44,178 bases of DNA from Actinomycetota bacterium. GTDB lineage: Bacteria > Actinomycetota > UBA4738 > HRBIN12. The stretch spans positions 1 to 44,178 of the forward strand of contig JAJPHY010000150.1 in NCBI GenBank assembly GCA_021325015.1, read 5' to 3'. Below, piece after piece: positions 4,826 through 21,701 of the stretch. Each line of letters opens with the position of its first letter. The stretch's first letter is position 1. The translations under genes were made by a program, and so were the position numbers. The notes under the pieces are model-generated. The model worked only from the letters and a program-made list of their open reading frames with translations, did not search any database and was not told the DNA's origin.

Positions 4826-6583
4826 ATGGAGACGGTGTATGGCTCATCGGCCATCGTCCATCGCGATGGGACGATCGAAGAGCTCGAGGGGGCGGCTGGA
4901 CGCCGGTTGCTGCTGGCCAGTCCCGATCTCCTCCGGTACGCGAGGGCGTTGCTCCGGCTCGACGTTCCGGACGTGCGTTTCCTGTGGCATGGCGCGCCGG
5001 GATGGCTCCTCGTCCGCATGGAGCGTTCCCGTCAGGCTCGTTCCGACCGGTGCGTCGTCTCCCTGTGGTGGCGTGATCTCCCCTGTGGTCTGACTGCGCG
5101 CGAGCTCGACGTCCTGACGCTGATCGCCGGGGGGCTGGGAAACCGAGAGATCGCCGGACGCCTGCGCGCGAGCGTCCGGACGGTTTCCACGCACGTGGAG
5201 CACATCTTGCTGAAGCTCGGTGCGCGGAGCCGAGCCGGTGCGGCCGCCATCGCCGTCGATCGGGGACTGCTCCGGCTCCCCATTCCTGGGGGAGCGCGCG
5301 ATCTGGACGGTCTCGGGGTCGGAGCCCTGGAGGCCGCCGTCGCCGAGGAGCGCGACGCCACCCGCTTGATCCGAATCGACGCACCCATCGCGATCGATCG
5401 GCGGCGCCCCCACCTGATCGGCGCGGCGTTTCCGCTCAGCGGCCCGGCCCGTGCCGACGGAATCCAGATGCGCAACGGGGCCATGCTGGCGATCGATGAG
5501 ATCAACGCCCGAGGGGGGGTCGCCGGTCGACCGATCGAACTCGTGTCCGTCGACATGAACATCTTCTCAGAACAGGGGGTTCGCGATGCCTTCGGGCGGC
5601 TCGAGGCCGTGGACATCGACGCCATCATCGTCGGGTACACGCTGTCGGGAACCGAGTTCGCGCTCGAGGCGGCGGCGGATCTCGGCATCCCGTTCCTGCA
5701 CGCGACGACCTCCGAGGCGGCGCTCACGCGGGTTCGCTCCGACCCGGGACGCTTCCAGCGGATCTTTCAAGTCTGTCCGAGCGAGGTTCACTACGGAGTT
5801 GGTTTCATCCGGTTTCTGGACGATCTCGCCCGAGGGGAACGATGGGAGCCACCCAGTCGGCGACTGATGATCATCGAGACTCCCGTGGACAGCGGCCAGA
5901 TGGCGACGACGCCGACGCTGGCGGCGGCCGCCGCTTCTGGCTGGATCGTCGATGCCGTGGAGTGCGTGCCCGAGCTCGATGCGGACTGGGAGGGTCTTGT
6001 GCGCCGAATCCACGCCGTCGATCCCGCCGCTGTTTTGGTCGCGGACTTCGTTCCGAGAGAGCTTGCCGCCTTCCAGCGCGCGTATGCCGCGAACCCCACC
6101 GACGCGCTCGTCTACGCGATCTACGCGCCCTCCGTGCCCGAGTTCCTCGAGCTCGCGGGGCCGACCGCGGAGGGGCTGATCTGGTCGACCGTGACCGGTA
6201 CGTACCCGGATCTCCTCGGCGGACGCTTCGCCCGCCGCTACCTGCGGGCGTTCGGGCGCCCGCCGGGCCGCTCGCACGCCGGGATCGCATACGACGAGGT
6301 TCACCTTCTCGCCAGTGCGTGGGCGGGCGTTGGCAATCCCCGCGATTTCGACGGCGTCGCGTCCCATCTCCGGCATGGGGCGTACCGCGGGGTCAACGGC
6401 ACCTACTTCTTCGACGAGTCCCAGGGAGCCATCTCGTACCCCGGAATGACGCTCGACCCCTCGCTCGGGCAGGCCCACCTCGTGTTCCAGGTGCAAAACG
6501 GGGAGCACCGGGTACTGGCTCCCGCCCCGTACGTCCAGGCGGCGTTCCGTCCACCTCCATGGGTACGGGCGAGGGCCACCTGA
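4826..6583 (+). CDS. LuxR-family HTH regulator fused to a cytoplasmic solute-binding-protein domain
   Basis: LTARELDVLTLIAGGLGNREIAGRL...TVSTHVEHILLKLG (LuxR HTH) followed by LAIDEINARGGVAGRPIEL and a full PBP1-like domain; no signal peptide. ATG 4826 follows a purine-rich RBS (the ORF track starts at 4739). Confidence 0.85.
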   Translation: METVYGSSAIVHRDGTIEELEGAAGRRLLLASPDLLRYARALLRLDVPDVRFLWHGAPGWLLVRMERSRQARSDRCVVSLWWRDLPCGLTARELDVLTLIAGGLGNREIAGRLRASVRTVSTHVEHILLKLGARSRAGAAAIAVDRGLLRLPIPGGARDLDGLGVGALEAAVAEERDATRLIRIDAPIAIDRRRPHLIGAAFPLSGPARADGIQMRNGAMLAIDEINARGGVAGRPIELVSVDMNIFSEQGVRDAFGRLEAVDIDAIIVGYTLSGTEFALEAAADLGIPFLHATTSEAALTRVRSDPGRFQRIFQVCPSEVHYGVGFIRFLDDLARGERWEPPSRRLMIIETPVDSGQMATTPTLAAAAASGWIVDAVECVPELDADWEGLVRRIHAVDPAAVLVADFVPRELAAFQRAYAANPTDALVYAIYAPSVPEFLELAGPTAEGLIWSTVTGTYPDLLGGRFARRYLRAFGRPPGRSHAGIAYDEVHLLASAWAGVGNPRDFDGVASHLRHGAYRGVNGTYFFDESQGAISYPGMTLDPSLGQAHLVFQVQNGEHRVLAPAPYVQAAFRPPPWVRARAT

Positions 6584-11225: not shown

Positions 11226-12719
11226 TCAGCCGTCCTCGGCACCCGATTCCCCATCGGGCAGCCAGAACTCGACCCGCGTGCCCGAGGCCGGTGCACCGGA
11301 GACCTTCAGCCAGCCACCGCATGACTCCGCTCGCTCGCGCATGCTCTCCAGCCCGAGATGCCCCGCGCGCGCGGATCGGTCCGGCCCCAAGCCCTTGCCG
11401 TCGTCGCTCACGTGCACCAGCATCCCCCCGCGCGAGCGCTCGAGAGTCACGTGAACGGAGCGGGCCTCCGCGTGCTTGGCGACGTTCCGGAGGGCCTCTT
11501 GCAGGATCCGGAAGCAGGTCGTGCGCGCCGGCTCGGCCGGCTCGGCCTGCAGCCGGTTCTTCAGGCTCGCCTCAACCCCCGTGTCACGGTGGAGATCGTC
11601 GAGCAGTCCTCGCACGGCGTCGGCGAGCCCTCCGCGTTCGAGGCTCGGCGGCACGAGCTCGAACAGGAGCGTGCGAAGCTCCCGCGTGACGGATTCGGTC
11701 ATGCGCCCGAGCTCCTCGACCGCGGCGACGAGCTCGGAGTCGTCCAAGCGGCTGCGGAGCATCTCAAGCCGGAGTCCCATGGCGACGGCCTTCTGCACGG
11801 GGCCGTCGTGCACTTCGCCGGCGATGCGCCGGTGCTCCTGCTCCCGGGCCTCCACCACGCGCGCGAGCAGGCGCTTGCGGTCCTCGTCGGTCTCCCGGAG
11901 CGCCGAGACGGTCATGCGCAGCACCTGCTCGACCTCCTTGTGGGCGGTGACGTCGACCATCACCCCCTGCCAGAGCTCCGGAGTCGAGGGCACGGGGACG
12001 GCCTCGTCGCGAATCCACACGACGCGCCCGTCGCGAGCGAGCACGCGATACTCGCACCGGAACGGTCGCCCCTCTCGCTGGCACGCCGCCTCCTCCTGGA
12101 GCACCCGATCCCGGTCCTCGGCGTGCAGGTGCGTGGTGAGGGCGTTCTCCTGCATCATCCACTCCTCAGGCGAGTACCCGAGCACGTCGTGGATCCTCGG
12201 GCTCACGTAGAGCCACTGACCCGTCGGGCCGAGGCCCGCCACGTAGACGATGCAGGGGATCTGCTCGACGAGCGTCCGGTACTTCTGCTCGGCTTGCCGG
12301 AGCTCGCGCTCGACCAGCCGGCGCTCGGTGATGTCGATCGCGAAGCCGACGGCGCCCACGATCTGGCCATCCGGCTGCACCTGCGGCACCACGCGCGACA
12401 GAAACGTCCGGTCCATCCAGTCGAGCTCGTAGGTCGCCGCCCGCCCTTGCAACGCGCGCAGGTGAGCGTCGATCGGTGTGAACGTGGCGTCGTCAGTCCC
12501 GAAGAACTCGAAGAGCGTCCGGCCGACGTTCTCGCCGGACTTGGATCCCAGGCCGGCAAGCGCCCCGCCCTCGGACAGCGTGAACCGCAGGTCTCGATCG
12601 ACCGCCCAGATCACCGCGGGCATCTGCCCGATGAGCGTCGGAAAGCGGTCGCCCTCGCGCGGTGCCGAACCGCCCTCGAGCGTCTCTCGGGCCGCGCGAA
12701 CGCCCTCCCCCCCGGCCAT
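11226..12719 (-). CDS. Soluble PAS-PAS sensor histidine kinase (HisKA_3/NarX-like)
   Basis: Two PAS/PAC units, EHRRIAGEVHDGPVQ H-box, EALRNVAKHA N-box, DDGKG, GHLGLESMRERA. Confidence 0.9.
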   Translation of the reverse strand: MAGGEGVRAARETLEGGSAPREGDRFPTLIGQMPAVIWAVDRDLRFTLSEGGALAGLGSKSGENVGRTLFEFFGTDDATFTPIDAHLRALQGRAATYELDWMDRTFLSRVVPQVQPDGQIVGAVGFAIDITERRLVERELRQAEQKYRTLVEQIPCIVYVAGLGPTGQWLYVSPRIHDVLGYSPEEWMMQENALTTHLHAEDRDRVLQEEAACQREGRPFRCEYRVLARDGRVVWIRDEAVPVPSTPELWQGVMVDVTAHKEVEQVLRMTVSALRETDEDRKRLLARVVEAREQEHRRIAGEVHDGPVQKAVAMGLRLEMLRSRLDDSELVAAVEELGRMTESVTRELRTLLFELVPPSLERGGLADAVRGLLDDLHRDTGVEASLKNRLQAEPAEPARTTCFRILQEALRNVAKHAEARSVHVTLERSRGGMLVHVSDDGKGLGPDRSARAGHLGLESMRERAESCGGWLKVSGAPASGTRVEFWLPDGESGAEDG

Positions 12720-12860: not shown

Positions 12861-14570
12861 TCAGGCCTCGGCGACCCCGCTGCCCGGAAGCCAGGCCTCG
12901 ACGGTCGTTCCCGCCCCGGGCCGGCTCTCGATCCGGCTCCAGCCGCCCACCATCTCCGCCCGCTCGCGGATGGAGGTGATGCCGAGATGTCCCGGCCGTC
13001 CGTTGCGCAGAATCTCGGGATCCATGCCGACCCCGTCGTCGCGGACGCGAAGGAAGAGCCCTCCCTCTCGCTCCTCGAGAAGCACGTCGACGCGGCTTGC
13101 CTCGGCATGGCGCTGCACGTTCGACAGGGCCTCTACCGCGATTCGGTAGGCGACCGTCCGGATCCCGTCGGGAGGCTCAGAGATCAGACGGTCCTCGACC
13201 CGGCAGTCGCGGAGCTCGCCCTTGGACAGGTCGACGAACTCCCGAACCGCGGCCACCAGTCCACCGGCGTCGAGCGAAGGAGGACGGAGGTCGAACATCA
13301 TGTGCCGGAGGTGATCGATCGCGAGGCGGACGACGTCTTGGAGTCCGTCGACGATCTCGATCTGTTCGGGATCCGACAGGCTCCGCCGGAGGAGCTGGAG
13401 GCGGAGCCCGACGGCGGTGATCTTCTGAACGGGGTCGTCGTGAATCGCCTCCGCGATCCTGCGCCGCTCGACCTCCTCCGCCGAGACCAGCACCTGGAGC
13501 AGCCGTTGCCGCTCCATGTCGGTGCGCCGCAACAGCTCGAAGCTCTCACGGAGCTCCTCGTCGGCCCTCGTACGGGCCGTGATGTCGAACAACGCGCCCT
13601 GCCAGTAACGCGGCCTCCCATCCGGGTCGTCGACGCGGACGGACTCTTCCTGGATCCAGAGCGTCCGGCCGTCCTTCGCGACGGCTCGGTACTCGGCGCT
13701 GAAAGGGGTGCCCTGCTCGTCCGCCCGGAGGCCGAGCTTGATGATCCGCTCGCGATCGTCCGGGTGCAGGATGCGGTCTGCCCAAAGCGACGGATCTCCC
13801 AGCCACTCCTCGACCGTGTATCCGAGGATGGTCTGCAGCTTGGGGCTTACGTAGAGGGGCCGGATGTCGTCGGGTCCGGGCCCGGTGATCTCGTCGATGT
13901 ACGTGATGGCCGGGAGGCGTTCGACCAGCGTTCGATACCTGGTCTCTGCGTCTCGCGCCTCGCGGACCAGCTCGCCCAGGCGGCCGTGGAAGTCGAGCAG
14001 CAACGCAAGCACGAGCCCCACGGTCGAGATGCCTCCCGCGGTCCGGATCCCGGACACGAACTCCGCAGGAAGCTCTGGCCCGACCGAGACCAGCCGCGCG
14101 ACCAAGAGGGTGGTCGCGGTCCATGCGAAACAGGCCCCGAAGATCGTCCAGTGTCGGGCTTGGCCCGCGTACAGGACCGAGGTGAGGGAGATGAGCAGGG
14201 AGACGCTCACTGGAACGAGCGCGATATCGGGCATCGCGAGCGTGACCACCGTTCCCATCACCAACAGTGAACCCCACAGCATGGTGAGCGCCGAGCGCGA
14301 ACGCCCCAGGTCGACCAGACGTCGACCGATCAAACAGGCGACGCCGGTGGCGGCGGTCGCGGACGCGGTCGCGATCAGCCAGCCGCTGTGGAGCGCCACG
14401 GCGCCTGCGGTGCCGCTGGTCGCGAAGCCGAAGGCAAGGAGTCCGATCCACCCGAGCAGGCGGTGGAGGTTTCGATCGGACACACCCTCCGGTACCTCGA
14501 CGTCCCGGATGCGCTCGACCACCTGAACGGACTCGCCCGCCCCATGCGGACGGTCGAGCGGAACGGTCAT
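12861..14570 (-). CDS. Membrane-bound PAS sensor histidine kinase (HisKA_3/NarX-like)
   Basis: N-terminal multi-TM region, PAS/PAC, ERRRIAEAIHDDPVQ, EALSNVQRHA, DDGVG, GHLGITSIRERA. Confidence 0.9.
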   Translation of the reverse strand: MTVPLDRPHGAGESVQVVERIRDVEVPEGVSDRNLHRLLGWIGLLAFGFATSGTAGAVALHSGWLIATASATAATGVACLIGRRLVDLGRSRSALTMLWGSLLVMGTVVTLAMPDIALVPVSVSLLISLTSVLYAGQARHWTIFGACFAWTATTLLVARLVSVGPELPAEFVSGIRTAGGISTVGLVLALLLDFHGRLGELVREARDAETRYRTLVERLPAITYIDEITGPGPDDIRPLYVSPKLQTILGYTVEEWLGDPSLWADRILHPDDRERIIKLGLRADEQGTPFSAEYRAVAKDGRTLWIQEESVRVDDPDGRPRYWQGALFDITARTRADEELRESFELLRRTDMERQRLLQVLVSAEEVERRRIAEAIHDDPVQKITAVGLRLQLLRRSLSDPEQIEIVDGLQDVVRLAIDHLRHMMFDLRPPSLDAGGLVAAVREFVDLSKGELRDCRVEDRLISEPPDGIRTVAYRIAVEALSNVQRHAEASRVDVLLEEREGGLFLRVRDDGVGMDPEILRNGRPGHLGITSIRERAEMVGGWSRIESRPGAGTTVEAWLPGSGVAEA

Positions 14571-14723
14571 GGCCGGGCTCCTCCTCGCTCGGACGAACCA
14601 TCCATGGCATCGGCGGGGTGCGCGGTCGCCTGTAGCTCACGGGATCCTTGCTCTCGGGGTTGCGGTCGCAGGCGAAGTGTCGATGGGCCGGGCCCCCGGG
14701 GCACATGCGATATGGTCGGGTCG

Positions 14724-14897
14724 ATGGCCGGGACGGAGGCCCCGCACGGGCTGGACGACTTGTCGGACGAGGAGCGGGCCGTGCTCGAGCGGGTGGTCGA
14801 TGTCCTACGGCGCCTGCGGTTCGGCACCGTCCTGCTCGTGGTTCAGGACGGCAAGGTCGTCCAGATCGAGATGGCGGAGAAGATCCGGCTGCGATAG
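14724..14897 (+). CDS. yezD: YezD/DUF2292 (OscA-like) small protein, 57 aa
   Basis: LRFGTVLLVVQDGKVVQIEMAEKIRL matches the family pattern; position upstream of sbp-cysTWA is typical; TATGGT at 14711-14716 suggests a leaderless start at 14724. Confidence 0.85.
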   Translation: MAGTEAPHGLDDLSDEERAVLERVVDVLRRLRFGTVLLVVQDGKVVQIEMAEKIRLR

Positions 14898-14925
14898 CAA
14901 CGCGCGCCCTGGGTTGGAGGCTCCG

Positions 14926-15102
14926 AGGCTCGGTGCCTTGACGAGGCCGGGCCTGAGCGGGTAGCGTGAAGCCCGCTCGGCCGACCGGACGACCGGAGGC
15001 CGGGGTCCCATCGGAAGCGATTGCCTTTCGATTGACCGGACAACCGGAGATCGAGGCTCACTCGGTCATGCCCGAGAACCCGGACCATCGAAAGGAGCCG
15101 AG
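14926..15102 (+). ncRNA. Putative cis-regulatory structured RNA leader of the sulfate transporter (twin YGA-CCGG-ACRA-CCGG-AG hairpins plus anti-SD helix)
   Basis: 16-nt repeat at 14983-14998 and 15034-15049 with one mismatch in the loop, each closed by a different outer stem; 15024-15039 is complementary (14/16) to 15080-15095, which covers the SD. Confidence 0.6.
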
Positions 15103-16185
15103 ATGCGGCCTCGCCCATTCCGGTCGGTATCCCGCCTGATCGTCGCTCTGGTTCCGCTCGCCCTCGTCGCCTCGGCGTGCGGCGGCGGATCCTCGCCCGG
15201 ATCGAACACCTCCCGCGGTCCGTGCACGCCGGCCAAGACGCCGGTCATCAACTTCGCCGCCTACAGCACGCCCCGCGAGGTCTACGGCCAGGTCATCCCC
15301 GCCTTCCAGTCCATGTGGAAGGAGGAGCACGACGGGCAGTCGGTGATCTTCCAGGAGTCCTATGCCGGCTCCACGACGCAGGCGCAGAACGTCATCGCCG
15401 GCTACCCCGCGGACGTCGTGGCGCTGTCGCTCGCACCCGATGTGGACGCGATCAAGGATGCGGGCCTGATCACGCACGACTGGACGCAGGCGCCCGACGG
15501 CGGCATGGTCTCGACCTCGGTCGTGGTCTTCGACGTCCGGCCCGGCAACCCGCTCGGCATCAAGGACTACGACGACCTGACCAAGCCGGGCGTTCAGATC
15601 CTCACCCCCGACCCCGCACAGAGCGGCGGTGCGCGCTGGAACCTCGTGGCGGCCTGGGGCGCGGCCCTCCGCGGGTACGCCGGCGTGCGGAAGGGCGACG
15701 AGGCCGGGGCGGCCGAGCTCCTCAAGGGGATTTTCGAGAACGTGCTCACGCTCGACAAGAGCGCCCGAGACTCGATCCAGAACTTCGAGTCCGGCAACGG
15801 CAACGTCGCGATCACCTACGAAAACGAGGTCAAGACCGCGCAGGAGGCGGGCCTTCCGGATGAGGCCGTGTACCCGCCGTCCACCGTCCTCATCCAGAAC
15901 CCGGTCGCAGTGGTGGACAAGAACGCCGAGGCGCACTGCGTGCTCGACATCGCCAACGCGTTCGTCGATTTCCTGCACACTCCCGAGGTCAAGCAGATGT
16001 ACCTGGAGGCCGGGTACCGGTCGACCGATCTCGCGCTCGCGAAGAAGGGCGATCCCAAGCTCGGCTACCCGCCGATCGGGGATCTGTTCACGGTCGACGA
16101 CTTGGGCGGCTGGCCGGCGCTCGACCAGAAGCTGTTCGGCCCCGACGGGATCGCGACGACGGCCCTCGCCGAGGCCCAGGGCTGA
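15103..16185 (+). CDS. sbp: Sulfate ABC transporter substrate-binding lipoprotein
   Basis: Lipobox LVASAC; QESYAGSTTQAQNV, ADVVALSL, GNPLGIKDYDDL, TPDPAQSGGARWN, ITYENE. Confidence 0.9.
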   Translation: MRPRPFRSVSRLIVALVPLALVASACGGGSSPGSNTSRGPCTPAKTPVINFAAYSTPREVYGQVIPAFQSMWKEEHDGQSVIFQESYAGSTTQAQNVIAGYPADVVALSLAPDVDAIKDAGLITHDWTQAPDGGMVSTSVVVFDVRPGNPLGIKDYDDLTKPGVQILTPDPAQSGGARWNLVAAWGAALRGYAGVRKGDEAGAAELLKGIFENVLTLDKSARDSIQNFESGNGNVAITYENEVKTAQEAGLPDEAVYPPSTVLIQNPVAVVDKNAEAHCVLDIANAFVDFLHTPEVKQMYLEAGYRSTDLALAKKGDPKLGYPPIGDLFTVDDLGGWPALDQKLFGPDGIATTALAEAQG

Positions 16186-16198
16186 GCCGAGATCGACG

Positions 16199-17059
16199 AT
16201 GGTGAGCGCCGCGCGGGCGACCGGACGGAGGTGGTCCCTCTCCTCGCGGGCGGCCGCGCGACTTCGGCACCGGAGCCTGCGCGCCGCCGCCGTCGTGTAC
16301 TTGGGGTTGATGATTGCGCTTCCCGCGGCGGTCGTGATCGACGAGGGCTTCGCCCGCGGCCTCAGCGACCTTCGGGACGGGCTGGCCTACCCCGGCGCGG
16401 CGGAGGCCGTCTGGTTGACGCTGGCCACGTCGACGGCGGCGGCGGTGGTCAACGCGGTGTTCGGAACGATCATCGCCTACGTGCTCGTGCGGTTCCGCTT
16501 CCCGGGCCGCCGGCTGCTCGGGGCTCTCGTGGACCTCCCGCTCGCCATCCCGACGCTCGTGACCGGCGTGATGCTCGTCGCGCTCTACGGTCCCGCGTCG
16601 CCGATCGGGCGGGCCCTCGAAGGGGCGGGGATCGAGGTGGCGTTCGCCCGGCTCGGGATCCTGCTGGCGCTCCTCGTCGTGACCCTTCCGTTCGTCGTTC
16701 GAGCCGTCCAGCCCGTGCTCCTCGAGCTCGACCCGGCCGAGGAGGAGGCGGCCGAGACCCTCGGCGCCAGCGGCTGGACGACGTTTCGCCGGATCGTGCT
16801 CCCGGCGATCCGCCCCGCGATCGCGGCGGGGGCGCTTCTCGTGTTCGCGCGCTCGCTCGGAGAGTTCGGGAGCGTCGTGATCGTCTCCGGCAACATCACC
16901 GGACGAACCCTGACCGCGCCGGTCCTGATCTTCCAGCTCGCGTCCCAGTTCAAGCCCGAGCAGGCGGCGGCCGTCGCCTCGGTTCTGTTCGCGATCTCCT
17001 TCGGCACGGTGTTGATCACCACGCGACTCGCGCGCGGGCGAAGAGGGGGACAGCCGTGA
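16199..17059 (+). CDS. cysT: Sulfate ABC transporter permease CysT
   Basis: AYVLVRFRFPGRRLLGALVDLPLAIPT, LPFVVRAVQPVL, EEEAAETLGA, RSLGEFGSV. Confidence 0.9.
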   Translation: MVSAARATGRRWSLSSRAAARLRHRSLRAAAVVYLGLMIALPAAVVIDEGFARGLSDLRDGLAYPGAAEAVWLTLATSTAAAVVNAVFGTIIAYVLVRFRFPGRRLLGALVDLPLAIPTLVTGVMLVALYGPASPIGRALEGAGIEVAFARLGILLALLVVTLPFVVRAVQPVLLELDPAEEEAAETLGASGWTTFRRIVLPAIRPAIAAGALLVFARSLGEFGSVVIVSGNITGRTLTAPVLIFQLASQFKPEQAAAVASVLFAISFGTVLITTRLARGRRGGQP

Positions 17060-17928
17060 GCGCCGGGTTCGCCATCCGGCGGGGCGGCGATCGGGACGCG
17101 ATGTTTCGCAGGCGGCGCCGCGCTGCCGTGCTGCGCGGGATGCTGGTCGCGCTCTGCGTGCTGTACCTCGCGGTGCTCCTCCTCGCGCCGCTCGCCGGCG
17201 TCGTCTGGCAGGCGCTCCGGCCCGGGTGGCGGGTCCTGGGCGACACGTTCACCCGATCCGATGTGGTGCACGCCTTCACCCTGACCGCCGTGATCGCGCT
17301 GATCACCGTGGCCGTCACCACCGCGTTCGGCGTGGTCGTCGCGTGGGTGCTGGTACGGCAGCGCTTCCGCGGCCGGGCGTTCCTGAACGCCCTGGTCGAT
17401 CTGCCGTTCGCGCTCTCGCCCGTGACGGTCGGCCTGGCCTGCGTGCTGCTGTTCGGGCGGGGCGGGTGGTTCCACGACTTCTTCGCCGCGCGCGGGATCC
17501 AGATCATCTTCGCCCTGCCATCGATGGTCCTCGTGACGATCTTCATCAGCGTCCCGTTCACGATCCGCGAAGTGCAGCCCGTGCTCGAGGAGATCGGAGT
17601 CGAGGAAGAGGACGCGGCCCGGACGCTCGGTGCCTCGGTGATGCAGACGTTCCTCCGGGTCACGCTCCCGAACATCCGGCGGGGCCTTCTCTACGGGATC
17701 GCGCTGTCCGCCGCGCGTGCGATCGGCGAGATCGGTGCGGTGCTGGTGGTCAGCGGACTCATCCAGGGCCGTACCGAGACCGCGACGCTCTACATCTACC
17801 GGGCGATGGAGGAGCGGCAAACGGCCTCGGCGTACGTCGTGGCCCTCACCCTTGCCGGCGTGTCGGTCCTGATCCTCGCGGCGATCGAGTGGGTCAAGCG
17901 CAAGCGGACCAGGGAGGACGAAGCATGA
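17056..17928 (+). CDS. cysW: Sulfate ABC transporter permease CysW
   Basis: FRGRAFLNALVDLPFALSPV, PFTIREVQPVL, VTLPNIRRGLLYG, ARAIGEIGAV; GTGA overlap with cysT. Confidence 0.9.
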   Translation: MSAGFAIRRGGDRDAMFRRRRRAAVLRGMLVALCVLYLAVLLLAPLAGVVWQALRPGWRVLGDTFTRSDVVHAFTLTAVIALITVAVTTAFGVVVAWVLVRQRFRGRAFLNALVDLPFALSPVTVGLACVLLFGRGGWFHDFFAARGIQIIFALPSMVLVTIFISVPFTIREVQPVLEEIGVEEEDAARTLGASVMQTFLRVTLPNIRRGLLYGIALSAARAIGEIGAVLVVSGLIQGRTETATLYIYRAMEERQTASAYVVALTLAGVSVLILAAIEWVKRKRTREDEA

Positions 17929-19013
17929 GCGAGCTCATCCGTGTCGAGAACCTCACCAAGCGCTTCGGCGACTTCGAGGCCGTTCGAGATGTGACGTTCA
18001 CCGCCGAGGCCGGCAGCATCACGGCTCTTCTCGGCCCCAGCGGCTCGGGCAAGAGCACCGTGCTGCGGATGATCGCCGGACTCGAGACGCCGACGCGGGG
18101 TCGCATCTGGCTGGGCCAGGAGGAGCAGACGCACACGAGCGTGCAGGAGCGGCGGGTTGGGTTCGTGTTCCAGCACTACGCGCTGTTTCGGCACCTGACC
18201 GTGTGGCAGAACGTGATGTTCGGCCTCGCGGTGCGCCGGATGTCAAAGCGCGAGCGGCGCGCCAGGGTCGAGGAGCTGCTCGAGCTCGTGCAGCTCGGCC
18301 CCTTCCGCGATCGCTACCCCGATCAGCTCTCGGGGGGTCAGCGCCAGCGGGTCGCCCTCGCGCGCGCCCTCGCGCCCCGCCCGAACGTGCTGCTGCTGGA
18401 CGAGCCGTTCGGAGCCCTCGACGCTCGGGTCCGGCAGGACCTGCGACGGTGGCTCGACAACCTGCATCGCGAGCTCGGCGTGACCAGCCTGCTCGTCACG
18501 CACGATCAGGACGAGGCGCTGGAGCTCGCCAACCGCCTGGTCGTGATGCGCGAGGGCCGGATCGAGCAGGTGGGAACGCCCAACGAGATCTACAACGAGC
18601 CCGCCACGCCGTTCGTCGCCGGCTTCGTCGGCAGCGCGAACGTGCTGCACGGGCACGTGATCGACGGCCACATGGAGTTCGGGGAGCATCGTGTGCCGAT
18701 CGCGAACGACCTTGCCGACGGGATCGACGCGCGCGCGTTCGTCAGGCCGCACGACGTGCGCGTGCGAGCGGGCGGTAGCGGCGGAGGGAGCGGCACCGCG
18801 CGGGCCACGGTCGAGCGCATCGTGACCCTCGGGTGGCTCTCCCGCGTGGTGCTCCGGCTCGGCGACGGTCAGGCGATCGTGGCCGAGCTGCCGAGCGACG
18901 AGCTGTGCGATGTCGGGCTGGGAGATGTGGTGGCGGTGGACGTCCGCCGCGCCCTCGCGTTCCGGGCCTCCGACGTCGGCCGGTTGGCGGAGTTCGCGAG
19001 CGTGGAGTCCTGA
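17925..19013 (+). CDS. cysA: Sulfate ABC transporter ATP-binding protein CysA
   Basis: GPSGSGKS, VGFVFQHYALFRHLTV, LSGGQRQR, LLDEPFGALDA, C-terminal TOBE-like region. Confidence 0.92.
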   Translation: MSELIRVENLTKRFGDFEAVRDVTFTAEAGSITALLGPSGSGKSTVLRMIAGLETPTRGRIWLGQEEQTHTSVQERRVGFVFQHYALFRHLTVWQNVMFGLAVRRMSKRERRARVEELLELVQLGPFRDRYPDQLSGGQRQRVALARALAPRPNVLLLDEPFGALDARVRQDLRRWLDNLHRELGVTSLLVTHDQDEALELANRLVVMREGRIEQVGTPNEIYNEPATPFVAGFVGSANVLHGHVIDGHMEFGEHRVPIANDLADGIDARAFVRPHDVRVRAGGSGGGSGTARATVERIVTLGWLSRVVLRLGDGQAIVAELPSDELCDVGLGDVVAVDVRRALAFRASDVGRLAEFASVES

Positions 19014-19025
19014 GCATCTCGGTCG

Positions 19026-20114
19026 ATGCATGATGAGCGCGTGATCCGGCGGCGACACGGGTCGGGGCTCCCGCGGGCGGTGGCGCTCGCGGTCGCGCTT
19101 GCGGTGCTGGGGGCGGGGTGCGCGAGCTCCGCCGCCCGTGCACGGGGCAGCGCGGAAGTCCTGCGCCTCGGGGTGTTCGCCACGCTCTCGCACGCCCCGG
19201 CCATCGTCGGTATCGCCTCCGGGATCTTCGCCCGTGAGCTCGCACCGACTCGGGTGGAAGTGCACGTGTTCGGCTCGGGCGTCGATGCCGGGGTCGCGCT
19301 CCTCGCGGGCTCGATCGATGCCGCCTACCTGGGGCCGTGGCCGGCGGTGTCCCTCTTCGTCCGGTCGGGGAAGGTGGCGGTCGTTTCGGGGGCCGCGCTC
19401 GGCGGGGCCTCGCTGATCGTTCGGCGGGGCCTCGGGATCGCGTCCCGTGAGGACCTGCGCGGCCGGAAGGTCGCCGTGCCGGCGATCGGCAACTCCCAGG
19501 ACCTCGCGCTGCGGACCTGGCTCCACGGCGGAGGTCTGCGGGCCACCGACGAGGGCGGCGATGTCTCGATCACGGAGGTGGAGAGCCCCCGACTCCTCCA
19601 GCTCTTCCGCGCCGGACGCTTGGACGGGGCGTGGGCGCCGGAGCCGTACGCGACCTGGCTCGTTCGGGCGGGTGTGGCCGACGAGCTCGTGAACGAGTCC
19701 TCGCTGTGGCCGGGCGGCCGCTTCCCGAGCGCGGTGCTCGTGGTCTCGGCCGGCTATCTCGATGCGCACCCGGGCGTGGTGGAGCGTCTGGTGCGCGCAA
19801 ACGTCGACTCGATCCGCTTTCTGCGGGAGTTCCCCGAGATCGCCAAGAGCGAGCTGGAGCGGGCGCTCGTTCGCGACGGGGCTCCGGCTCTGCCGGCGCG
19901 GGTGATCGCTGCGGCGTGGCGGCGCGTGACGTTCACCTGGGACCCTCTCCCCTCGGCTCTCGAGTCCGTGGCCCGGGACGCCGCGGCCCTCGGCATCCTG
20001 TCGCTCCCGCCTCGAGGGCTCGCCGGACTCGAGCGCCTTGACGCCCTGGAGTCCGTCCTGGACGATGAGGGCCTTCCGCCGCTCGAGATCGGAACGACCA
20101 TGGGGTCCACGTGA
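19026..20114 (+). CDS. ssuA: NitT/TauT-family (SsuA-like) ABC substrate-binding lipoprotein
   Basis: Lipobox LGAGC, LRLGVFATLSHAPA, IDAAYLGPWPA, GNSQDLALR, DGAWAPEP; start position and substrate uncertain. Confidence 0.72.
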   Translation: MHDERVIRRRHGSGLPRAVALAVALAVLGAGCASSAARARGSAEVLRLGVFATLSHAPAIVGIASGIFARELAPTRVEVHVFGSGVDAGVALLAGSIDAAYLGPWPAVSLFVRSGKVAVVSGAALGGASLIVRRGLGIASREDLRGRKVAVPAIGNSQDLALRTWLHGGGLRATDEGGDVSITEVESPRLLQLFRAGRLDGAWAPEPYATWLVRAGVADELVNESSLWPGGRFPSAVLVVSAGYLDAHPGVVERLVRANVDSIRFLREFPEIAKSELERALVRDGAPALPARVIAAAWRRVTFTWDPLPSALESVARDAAALGILSLPPRGLAGLERLDALESVLDDEGLPPLEIGTTMGST

Positions 20115-20956
20115 GCTCGGTGCCGTCGCTGCGCGTGGTGGGGCGACCCGAGCCGACCTCGCCGAAGCTATCCCTCCGCTCGGTTTCGAAGACCTACCGG
20201 CAGTCGAGCGGGGAGCTCGTCCGGGCACTCGACGACGTCACGCTGGACGTCGCCCCCGGGGAGTTCGTGTGCCTGGTCGGCCCCTCCGGGTGCGGCAAGT
20301 CGACGCTGCTCGACCTGATCGCCGGGCTCGAGCGCCCCGACGCGGGCCAGGTCCTCATGAACGGGCGCCCGATCGCGGGCCCCGGCCCAGACCGGGCGGT
20401 GCTCTTTCAGGAGCCGACGTTGTTCCCGTGGATGAGCGTGATCCGCAACCTCGAGTTCGCGCTCGGCCTGACCGGCGTGCCGAAGGCCGACCGTCGGGAA
20501 CTTGCCATGCACTGGCTGAGCAAGGTGCACCTGTCGGCGTTCGCGAGCGCCCAGCCGCACGAGATCTCACCCGGGATGCGCCAGCGGGCGGTCCTCGCCC
20601 GGGCGCTCGCCTGCCAGCCGGAGGTGCTGCTTGCCGACGAGCCGTTCGGGGCGCTGGACGCGCAGTCGCGCGAGGTGCTGCAGCGGGAGCTGCAGACGGT
20701 GTGGCTCGAGACGCGGAACACCTTCGTCTTCGTGACCCACAACGTGCGCGAGGCGGTGTTCCTCGCGGATCGCGTGGTGCTGATGTCGGCGCGTCCAGGG
20801 ACGCTCGTCGCCGAGCACCGGATCTCCTCGCCGCGGCCTCGCTCGTTCGAGGACGTGCTCCTGGCGAAGGTCGTCGTCGACGTCCACGACCATCTGCTGA
20901 AGGAGGTGCAGAAGGTTGTCGCGACCGAGGAGGGCGTTCGGCCAGGTCTGGCCTAG
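20111..20956 (+). CDS. ssuB: NitT/TauT-family ABC ATP-binding protein (SsuB/TauB-like)
   Basis: GPSGCGKST, LFQEPTLFPW, DEPFGALDA, VTHNVREAVFLADRV; atypical signature ISPGM. Confidence 0.8.
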   Translation: MSSVPSLRVVGRPEPTSPKLSLRSVSKTYRQSSGELVRALDDVTLDVAPGEFVCLVGPSGCGKSTLLDLIAGLERPDAGQVLMNGRPIAGPGPDRAVLFQEPTLFPWMSVIRNLEFALGLTGVPKADRRELAMHWLSKVHLSAFASAQPHEISPGMRQRAVLARALACQPEVLLADEPFGALDAQSREVLQRELQTVWLETRNTFVFVTHNVREAVFLADRVVLMSARPGTLVAEHRISSPRPRSFEDVLLAKVVVDVHDHLLKEVQKVVATEEGVRPGLA

Positions 20957-21701
20957 GGTCGCGATCCTTGTCGTTCTCGTCCTGGCCTGGTGGGCCGTCT
21001 ACGCCACCGGCTTGTGGGATCGCGTGCTCCTGCCCTCCCCGGCCAGCGTGTGGACCGCCCTCTGGTCGAATCTGTCGGGCGCGGGCGGGCTGCTCGTGGC
21101 CGCCGAGCGCAGCGCGCTCCGCCTGTTCCTCGGCCTCGCGGCGGCGGCGGTGATCGGCACGCCGATCGGGCTTGCGATGGCCGCCTCGAAGATCGTGCAG
21201 CGAAGCATCGGCAGCCTGATGGTGGGCCTGCAGGCGCTTCCCTCGATCGCCTGGCTGCCGCTTGCCACCCTCTGGTTCGGCATCACGGAGCGGGCCGTGT
21301 TCTTCGTGGTCGTGATGGGAGCGACTCCCGCGGTGGCGATTGCCACGGCGGCGAGCGTCCGGCTGGTTCCCCCGACGCTGATCCGCGCGGCGCGCACGCT
21401 CGGGTCGAGGGGCGGACGGCTGTACGTTCGCGTGGTGCTCCCCGCCGCGGTCCCCGGATACATCGCCGGGCTTCAACAGGCCTGGGCGCTCGCCTGGCGT
21501 GCCCTCATGGCGGCGGAGCTCATCGTCACCGGGGCACGCGGGCTCGGCCACTTCCTCGAGCGAGCGGGCGCCGTCTTCGACACGCCGCTGATGCTCGCGA
21601 CGATGGTGGCGATCATGCTGGTCGGCATCGGGGTCGACGGGGTGTTCACCCTCGTCGATCGGCGGGTTCGCAGCCGTCGGGGACTCATCCCGTCCGGGTG
21701 A
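20916..21701 (+). CDS. ssuC: NitT/TauT-family ABC permease (SsuC-like)
   Basis: LLPSPASV, LQALPSIAWLPLATLWFG, WRALMAAEL. Confidence 0.8.
   Translation: MSRPRRAFGQVWPRVAILVVLVLAWWAVYATGLWDRVLLPSPASVWTALWSNLSGAGGLLVAAERSALRLFLGLAAAAVIGTPIGLAMAASKIVQRSIGSLMVGLQALPSIAWLPLATLWFGITERAVFFVVVMGATPAVAIATAASVRLVPPTLIRAARTLGSRGGRLYVRVVLPAAVPGYIAGLQQAWALAWRALMAAELIVTGARGLGHFLERAGAVFDTPLMLATMVAIMLVGIGVDGVFTLVDRRVRSRRGLIPSG

Follow-up and report, generated by a model that had tools for sequence, protein, structure and literature searches.

Two small RNA hairpins in front of a sulfate uptake operon almost certainly represent a real, conserved and unannotated cis-regulatory RNA element. They lie on a 44,178-nucleotide (nt) contig from an Actinomycetota bacterium (JAJPHY010000150.1, assembly GCA_021325015.1), referred to here as the window, between yezD, encoding a 57-amino-acid (aa) protein of the DUF2292/YezD/OscA family, and sbp, encoding a sulfate/thiosulfate-binding protein. 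Most of what is understood about how sulfate and sulfonate uptake is controlled concerns regulators that bind DNA, such as CysB, CymR and CysR/SsuR. Here, a candidate for a conserved switch at the level of RNA fronts the genes of sulfate and sulfonate uptake and is tied to a small DUF2292 protein. From comparative sequence data and structure prediction, we consider it fairly probable that YezD, acting as a predicted dimer, binds the hairpin and serves as an antiterminator and translation activator.

Twin hairpins with a common core and different outer stems

The hairpin consists of a core, YGA-CCRG-loop-CYGG-AG, held within a variable outer stem. The window has two copies of the core, GACCGGACGACCGGAG at 14983-14998 and GACCGGACAACCGGAG at 15034-15049. 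The outer stems around them differ in sequence and each can pair (CTCGGC/GCCGGG at 14976-14981/14999-15004 and TCGAT/ATCGA at 15028-15032/15050-15054), so that the positions and pairing proposed in the original prediction, made from the sequence, were borne out. Taken simply as a 16-mer, the repeat lacks significance: there were 2 matches versus 0.47 expected, and at least 2 appeared in 7 of 100 shuffles. We built a covariance model, R1, from 28 related hairpins. This set included both window copies, and the window therefore matches by construction, with E=3.0e-8 for hairpin 1 and E=1.4e-8 for hairpin 2; R1 found no third match in the 2.6-Mb genome to which the window belongs.

We then examined an alignment of 54 hairpins. 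Paired cells made up 90.5% overall and 100% in the inner helix. The original prediction had looked to covariation near DUF2292 homologs as the test of the idea; the motif is present there, its covariation score was 0.321 compared to 0.150 for shuffled alignments, and none of 500 shuffles reached the observed score. With partners slid out of register, the score was at most 0.08. Compensatory changes occur in three of the four inner-helix pairs (G-C/A-U/G.U, G-C/U-A and C-G/U.G). Pair 3 is G-C in 37 hairpins, A-U in 16 and G.U in 1, while pair 4 has one U-A and pair 2 has one U.G. The outer pairs adjoining the internal loop vary as well, one being C-G in 38 copies and U-A in 16, and the other G-C in 45, A-U in 7 and C-G in 1. 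No variation is seen within the internal loop at the G and A of the 5′ side or at the A of the 3′ side, and the next G is at least 90% conserved. The end loop is 4 to 5 nt long and variable (ACGA, ACAA, ACAU, ACCA, UCAA, AAAA and 5-nt loops), and its first position, an A, is the only loop position that is at least 90% conserved. Hairpins from pseudomonads contribute further inner stems, CUGG/CCGG and CUGG/CCAG. The rows from other phyla were found by a fixed pattern that included GC...GCC, and because the pattern was fixed, these flanks carry no weight as covariation. The compensatory and wobble changes, the strand specificity, and the overlap with a terminator or an anti-Shine-Dalgarno (anti-SD) sequence described below all agree with the earlier proposal of a structured RNA rather than a DNA repeat. 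A chance repeat was rejected as a reading of the twin hairpins.

The original prediction had also called for a comparison with Rfam. A cmscan of the whole window against Rfam 15 at gathering thresholds returned 0 matches, placing the element in no known family. When E values up to 10 were allowed, the region 14500-15300 gave a single chance match, to ALIL on the opposite strand. The published full text that was searched yielded no description of this RNA element and no mechanism for a DUF2292/YezD/OscA protein.

Two mutually exclusive pairings in the leader

The sequence CCUUUCGAU at 15024-15032 is complementary at 9 of 9 positions to AUCGAAAGG at 15087-15095, in the ribosome-site region of sbp. 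The same anti-SD/SD pairing covers 7 to 9 of 9 positions in all 16 leaders with twin or triple hairpins, whereas shuffles average about 5.7, and the first hairpin's flank, taken as a comparison in this test, gave about 6 of 9 pairs. The anti-SD helix covaries, being formed by CCUUUCGGU/ACCGAAAGG in a related leader (L231) versus CCUUUCGAU/AUCGAAAGG in the window, and the minimum-energy fold of 14970-15112 contains the helix that masks the SD. Because both hairpin 2 and the masking helix need the same five bases, the UCGAU arm, the two are mutually exclusive. Two leaders from family f7 of the same order (L228 and L229) have three tandem hairpins before sbp, not two. On inspection by eye, some pseudomonad spacers, such as L240, show no obvious 9-nt anti-SD helix, and for this reason we do not extend the translational mechanism to pseudomonads.

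A single-hairpin layout stands before genes for SsuA-like, TauE, Na_Pi_cotrans-like and DUF2292 proteins. Here, the bases that follow the AG (GGCC...) open a strong stem, and a T-rich tail comes next, which makes an intrinsic terminator. An automated test detected a terminator stem beginning at the G of the AG in 24 of 35 single hairpins, and 8 of the 11 misses show the same stem by eye with T-poor tails. The RNA site thus overlaps a terminator or an SD and gives exclusive bound and free states, which is the layout of antitermination and attenuation systems. In both layouts, a hairpin stabilized together with its outer stem should turn expression on. This on-switch logic is well supported by the comparative sequence data, and we regard it as likely.

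A promoter-like box between yezD and the hairpins

A promoter-like box, TTGACG-N18-TAGCGT, is found at 14938-14967. Of 19 related leaders, 12 carry the pattern TTGACN-N16-19-NANNNT 5′ of the first hairpin, versus 8 of 1,080 random 90-nt windows, and TTGAC can be seen by eye in 5 of the 7 leaders that fail this strict pattern. In most leaders, 11 to 18 nt separate the end of the −10 box from the YGA. Because a generic scan of 14400-15300 for sigma-70 promoters and terminators made no prediction, it is conservation that identifies the box. Transcription of sbp would begin at around 14970-14976, and since this conserved box separates yezD from the hairpins, the latter probably form the extreme 5′ end of the sbp transcript rather than yezD-sbp intercistronic RNA. 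As part of the sbp-cysTWA-ssuABC leader, they could act once transcription has begun, in keeping with the control after transcription that had been suggested. Two further upstream hairpins, 14926-14954 and 14955-14978, had been proposed along with the twin copies, and the box coincides with them. They do fold, but without conservation at the RNA level, and since a conserved promoter-like box occupies the site, we do not count them as part of the RNA element.

Phylogenetic range and downstream genes

Twin hairpins follow a DUF2292 gene in 6 of 40 relatives whose DUF2292 loci were compared, with outer stems that differ yet pair, and a single hairpin is present in many others. R1 matched in 109 of 151 genomes of the window's family, with 1 to 6 copies each, and in 5 of 8 families of the order; a class-level search covered the same eight families and added nothing. 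We listed the first gene after the hairpin for 42 leaders from the family and order, assigning 10 representatives by Pfam and the others by N-terminal likeness. The genes were Na_Pi_cotrans-like in 16 cases, Sbp-like in 10, SsuA-like in 9, TauE in 3, DUF2292 in 3 and unclear in 1. Single hairpins most often precede the gene for a Na_Pi_cotrans-domain transporter of some 395 aa (16 of 42; L008, L024, L054-L069 and others). DUF2292 and ATP-binding cassette (ABC) ATPase genes often come after this gene, and its product may be a sulfate or sulfonate symporter.

A pattern scan across phyla, with one genome per species, produced at least 120 matches, mostly chance hits in coding sequence, and gives examples, not a distribution. 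Among the matches listed, a Methylomirabilis metagenome-assembled genome has three copies of the hairpin, one of them before sulfite reductase (by eye). A hairpin-terminator precedes a Porin_O_P protein (Pfam) in Planctomycetaceae and an NMT1/SsuA-like protein (by eye) in Dehalococcoidales; two further genomes have one before Porin_O_P and before a CysT-like permease (the latter by eye), and hairpin-terminators are also present in Pelobacter, Desulfuromonadales and Oscillospiraceae. At two of these loci (L210:1711-2031 and L166, Pelobacter/Desulfuromonadales), the gene after the terminator encodes a 107-aa protein that starts with MSQQACSKERVVHGHPCFGG and has no Pfam family; in L210, a ThiI-like gene comes after it. 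In Planctomycetaceae loci L207 and L217, different hairpins come after the DUF2292 genes; their stem order is CUGG...CCAG, their loops are of the AA/AG type, and they may represent a diverged form of the motif.

In an Ectopseudomonas genome, the hairpin C GA CUGG ACCA CCGG AG sits between oscA and sbp. Eight of the 11 R2 matches in 31 genomes of the Ectopseudomonas family are oscA-sbp spacers. Two reports describe oscA and sbp as a single unit, with induction by chromate or by sulfur starvation (PMC2996968, PMC3596284). The pseudomonad spacers also hold a second conserved block, roughly CGCACCGGUACUGCAGCUGUCGCCCGCGAAUGCGG, about 40 to 60 nt 3′ of the hairpin (L234, L235, L238, L244, L250, L252 and L253), which could be another RNA structure or a promoter/operator for sbp. 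Judged by these matches, the range of the hairpin is Actinomycetota, Methylomirabilota, Desulfuromonadota-type genomes, Chloroflexota, Planctomycetota and the Ectopseudomonas family.

Association of the hairpin with DUF2292 genes

Within the family, 107 of 151 genomes have both the hairpin and DUF2292, 2 have the hairpin only, 1 has DUF2292 only, and 41 have neither; without six unpublished genomes, these counts are 101, 2, 1 and 41 of 145. The three exceptions are 64 to 87% complete, and their matches lie on short contigs or where a contig ends. Hairpin and DUF2292 share a locus in every one of the 17 near relatives with both. Among the matches listed for other phyla, DUF2292 was found in 8 of 9 genomes with a clear hairpin and in 1 of 5 genomes with chance pattern matches only. 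The DUF2292 gene ends 10 to 170 nt before the hairpin in five of them (G235, G238, G239, G241 and G242), namely Methylomirabilis, Pelobacter, Dehalococcoidales and two Desulfuromonadota-type genomes. By eye, the DUF2292 gene of the two Desulfuromonadota-type genomes overlaps a cysK-like gene, and the hairpin-terminator precedes a metK-like or nifH-like gene. In the Ectopseudomonas family, a hairpin lies no more than 150 nt after 15 of 21 DUF2292 genes, and a search of 10 DUF2292-negative genomes of this family with R2 gave no match.

A seeming exception is an Oscillospiraceae genome (G237), which has two hairpin-terminators before non-sulfur genes, each directly 3′ of a YezD-like small open reading frame (ORF). 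At the first locus (L123:5265-5900), a cobalamin riboswitch (5265-5476, 36.6 bits) is followed by a 53-aa YezD-like ORF (5556-5717), the hairpin (5742-5763) with its terminator, and a gene for a DUF4430/Ig-like surface protein. Here, a YezD-hairpin module would seem to relay the signal of a B12 sensor. At the second (L265:1315-1700), a 60-aa YezD-like ORF ends 9 nt before a hairpin with the outer stem GAAC/GUUC, and a terminator and a gene for a dockerin-domain protein come next. The likeness of these small ORFs to YezD is weak: PF10055 is the sole family found, at E=0.031, and hhalign gave E=0.0015 and 0.0065. Their nearest ESM Atlas clusters all carry PF10055, with scores of 0.82 to 0.84, which we treat as a lead only.

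The YezD protein

The 57-aa product of yezD matched positions 1-37 of the 37-position PF10055 profile with 58.4 bits (E=5.2e-16; gathering score, 22 bits) and is a member of the family. We collected 589 YezD homologs of 31 to 100 aa. An AlphaFold2 (AF2) model of YezD has one helix and a beta-hairpin, with a predicted local distance difference test (pLDDT) score of 78.7. A homodimer through strand 35-41 was predicted with a score of 0.56, versus 0.00 for the best control; among proteins of solved structure, 20 of 30 pairs of one chain attained this mark, as did 1 of 23 single chains. Contacts agree between the dimer runs to at least 95%, and the partner has a pLDDT of 74 or more. A dimer of this predicted form fits the twin hairpin sites. 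Alignments of YezD against viral contigs, together with tblastn against phage records, found no relative. In Bacillus subtilis, yezD is reported to be repressed by CymR and Spx (PMC3479203).

Features of the window

The coordinates are collected in Table 1. Start codons of the operon genes downstream of sbp are approximate. Two tandem histidine kinases with PAS, HisKA_3 and HATPase_c domains, at 11226-12719 and 12861-14570 on the minus strand, are divergent from yezD; they are not conserved beside the module at other loci.

Table 1. Positions in the window of yezD, the leader elements and the sbp operon
Feature	Position	Strand	Evidence or remark
yezD, 57-aa DUF2292/YezD/OscA-family protein; candidate trans-acting partner	14724-14897	+	PF10055 match
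Promoter-like box: TTGACG 14938-14943, 18-nt spacer, TAGCGT 14962-14967	14938-14967	+	Sequence reading and conservation
Hairpin 1: outer stem CUCGGC/GCCGGG, internal loop CGA/AG, inner stem CCGG/CCGG, loop ACGA	14976-15004	+	
Anti-SD CCUUUCGAU; last 5 nt double as 5′ arm of hairpin 2 outer stem	15024-15032	+	
Hairpin 2: outer stem UCGAU/AUCGA, internal loop UGA/AG, inner stem CCGG/CCGG, loop ACAA	15028-15054	+	
sbp ribosome-binding region AUCGAAAGGAG	15087-15097	+	15087-15095 pairs with anti-SD; GGAG at 15094-15097
sbp, sulfate/thiosulfate-binding protein; first regulated gene	15103-16185	+	SBP_bac_11, E=9e-32
Remainder of operon after sbp	16229-21701	+	Pfam BPD_transp_1, ABC_tran + CysA_C_terminal + TOBE_2, NMT1_2
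cysT	~16229-17059	+	
cysW	~17095-17928	+	
cysA	~17940-19013	+	
ssuA-like gene	19026-20114	+	
ABC ATPase	20111-20956	+	
Permease	20916-21701	+	

Discussion

The pairings suggest a model of how the switch could work. In the off state, CCUUUCGAU of the free RNA would pair with AUCGAAAGG, and sbp would be left untranslated. In the on state, a trans-acting factor would clamp the internal loop and outer stem of hairpin 2 and retain the UCGAU arm there; the ribosome site would then be free and the operon translated. In single-hairpin relatives, clamping would withhold GGCC, the first bases of the terminator, and transcription would read on. The factor would most likely be the neighboring 57-aa YezD/DUF2292 protein as a dimer, whose synthesis may itself report sulfur shortage, with hairpin 1 as a second, cooperative site. 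In this model, we infer the direction of the switch, YezD as its binder, and the signal. We favor YezD as the binder on the basis of its synteny with the hairpin across phyla, the reuse of the hairpin outside sulfur metabolism, and the predicted dimer.

Several observations weigh against this model. Single hairpins have an outer stem of just 2 to 3 bp, which would have to compete with the terminator. In the pseudomonads, 6 of 21 DUF2292 genes have no recognizable hairpin after them. The co-occurrence within the family is partly trivial, because the five "neither" genomes that were tested also have no Sbp homolog, that is, the whole sulfur module is missing. Since the promoter-like box separates yezD from the hairpins, YezD would have to act in trans in the window. 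The Oscillospiraceae small ORFs reach no curated threshold for homology to YezD, BLASTP between the 53-aa and 60-aa ORFs gave no alignment, and among 41 genomes of the Oscillospiraceae family true R2 matches were confined to the starting genome, so that non-sulfur use is seen in one genome. As for the protein, Foldseek against the PDB revealed no likeness to a known RNA-binding fold (best E, 0.37), and a PDB sequence search with YezD had no significant match; the top nonsignificant rows were arterivirus nucleocapsid dimers and MazE/AbrB. Whole YezD is slightly acidic as counted from its sequence, and several of its invariant residues are Q, D or E.

We weighed four other explanations against these data. 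The hairpin could be a small-molecule riboswitch aptamer that is stabilized by a metabolite of sulfur shortage, such as O-acetylserine, with YezD merely a regulated or neighboring gene. Deep conservation across phyla, an invariant internal loop, classical expression platforms (terminator overlap and SD sequestration) and a coherent regulon of sulfur uptake and assimilation would all suit a riboswitch, as would the presence of DUF2292 itself downstream of the hairpin at L024, L031, L135 and L186. We nevertheless find this unlikely. The core has only about 17 to 25 nt, with a 3+2-nt internal loop and a variable end loop of 4 to 5 nt, and it occurs in two or three copies per leader. A gene kept immediately upstream in at least five distant genomes is not expected of a riboswitch. 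The same hairpin and terminator also stand before DUF4430 and dockerin genes, after YezD-like ORFs and in one case under a cobalamin riboswitch; such reuse is hard to fit with an aptamer for a sulfur metabolite and easy to fit with a protein-RNA module. It is still less probable that another factor (an RNA-binding protein, RNA polymerase, a Nus factor or a small RNA) binds the hairpin while YezD has an unrelated role in sulfur metabolism. What ties YezD to the RNA is indirect (synteny, co-occurrence and the predicted dimer), the six pseudomonad genes just mentioned have no adjacent hairpin, and OscA and YezD are described as responding to sulfur starvation or as regulated by CymR and Spx, with function unknown (PMC2996968, PMC3479203). 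However, no other gene is kept beside the hairpin across phyla: its neighbors vary, from histidine kinases in the window to what is by eye cysK in Desulfuromonadota-type loci. The non-sulfur copies, too, retain a YezD-like ORF directly upstream.

A hairpin that begins 9 to 25 nt past the stop codon of the small ORF, as at L108, L123, L210 and L265, raises the idea of an effect in cis, in which a ribosome terminating at the yezD stop occludes the hairpin or terminator, as in leader-peptide attenuation. But in the window and most actinobacterial leaders the promoter-like box lies between gene and hairpin, many hairpins are far from any DUF2292 gene, and YezD, unlike a leader peptide, is a conserved folded protein with residues that are invariant across phyla; we consider such an effect very improbable. 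We give the least credence to a reading with no RNA element at all, in which a repressor recognizes the inverted repeat just 3′ of the promoter as its DNA operator. The inner stem is indeed an inverted repeat some 11 to 32 nt past the −10 box in actinobacterial leaders, but its conserved flanks are asymmetric (YGA versus AG), and wobble forms with G.U or U.G (L025 and the pseudomonad CUGG/CCGG) retain RNA pairing while losing DNA symmetry. Outer stems, anti-SD helix and terminators covary or overlap at the RNA level, every copy examined faces the downstream gene, and there are intercistronic copies with no space for a promoter.

The binding of the hairpin by YezD, if true, would define an RNA-binding fold of a new kind, along with an antitermination part that is compact and transferable. 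A broader idea, to which we give about even chances, is that YezD/DUF2292/OscA proteins form a new and widespread family of dimeric RNA-hairpin-binding proteins, and that together with the YGA-CCRG...CYGG-AG hairpin they make up a portable relay module. An upstream sensor, such as a sulfur-responsive promoter or a cobalamin riboswitch, would set the level of YezD, and YezD in turn would open the terminators or ribosome sites of a single transcript or of several. If this is correct, a DUF found from Bacillus to Pseudomonas gains a function, and a new RNA family is defined that controls sulfur uptake in at least five phyla. If YezD does not bind, the hairpin would be among the smallest orphan riboswitch candidates known. 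Earlier work linked OscA to chromate resistance and to sulfur starvation, and one report gives its function as unknown (PMC2996968). The hairpin in the oscA-sbp spacers of pseudomonads makes the proposed role directly testable there, in common laboratory strains.

Among known RNAs, the guanidine-II (mini-ykkC) riboswitch shares with the window two small tandem GC-rich hairpins in a leader and ACGR-like tetraloops, the loop of hairpin 1 being ACGA. In guanidine-II, each of the two hairpins is capped by a conserved ACGR tetraloop. Here, the conserved part is instead the internal loop, single and triple copies exist, and the genes are those of sulfur uptake and not of guanidine. We rejected guanidine-II: the loop columns vary across the 54 copies, and cmscan gave no match to it even at E values up to 10. 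ANTAR targets are two tandem hexaloop hairpins, the second of which overlaps a terminator; this assignment was rejected with loops of 4 to 5 nt and a single hairpin sufficing before most terminators. A kink-turn has a 3-nt bulge followed by tandem sheared G.A/A.G pairs, with GA on the nonbulged strand; it was rejected on a 3′ strand that reads AG, not GA, in 53 of 54 copies and AA in one. Models for sul1 and NMT1 are presumably present in Rfam release 15. The window element resembles the sul1 motif in being an orphan candidate before sulfate transporter genes; the sul1 motif is a different RNA, the transporter class associated with it (sul1) is another one, and no Rfam family matches the window. 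The sul1 motif is reported as a cis-regulatory RNA candidate upstream of sulfate transporter genes for which no ligand was found (PMC5737381). An attenuator-type leader shared before a sulfonate transporter operon in bacilli (PMC2965389) may be related.

By analogy and without homology, the YezD-hairpin system would work like protein-dependent antitermination. The HutP/hut terminator of B. subtilis, the ribonucleic antiterminator (RAT)-terminators of LicT, SacY and GlcT, and the PyrR attenuators are systems of this kind. The window system differs from them in that YezD has no common Pfam family or fold match with their proteins and the RNA motif is distinct; its hairpin family would also serve in the unmasking of an SD, and the binding by YezD is putative. 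What they share is a small regulator gene just 5′ of an RNA site that overlaps a terminator, with several sites per operon possible. In the known systems, binding of the protein favors read-through, and we propose that YezD acts in the same direction in the window.

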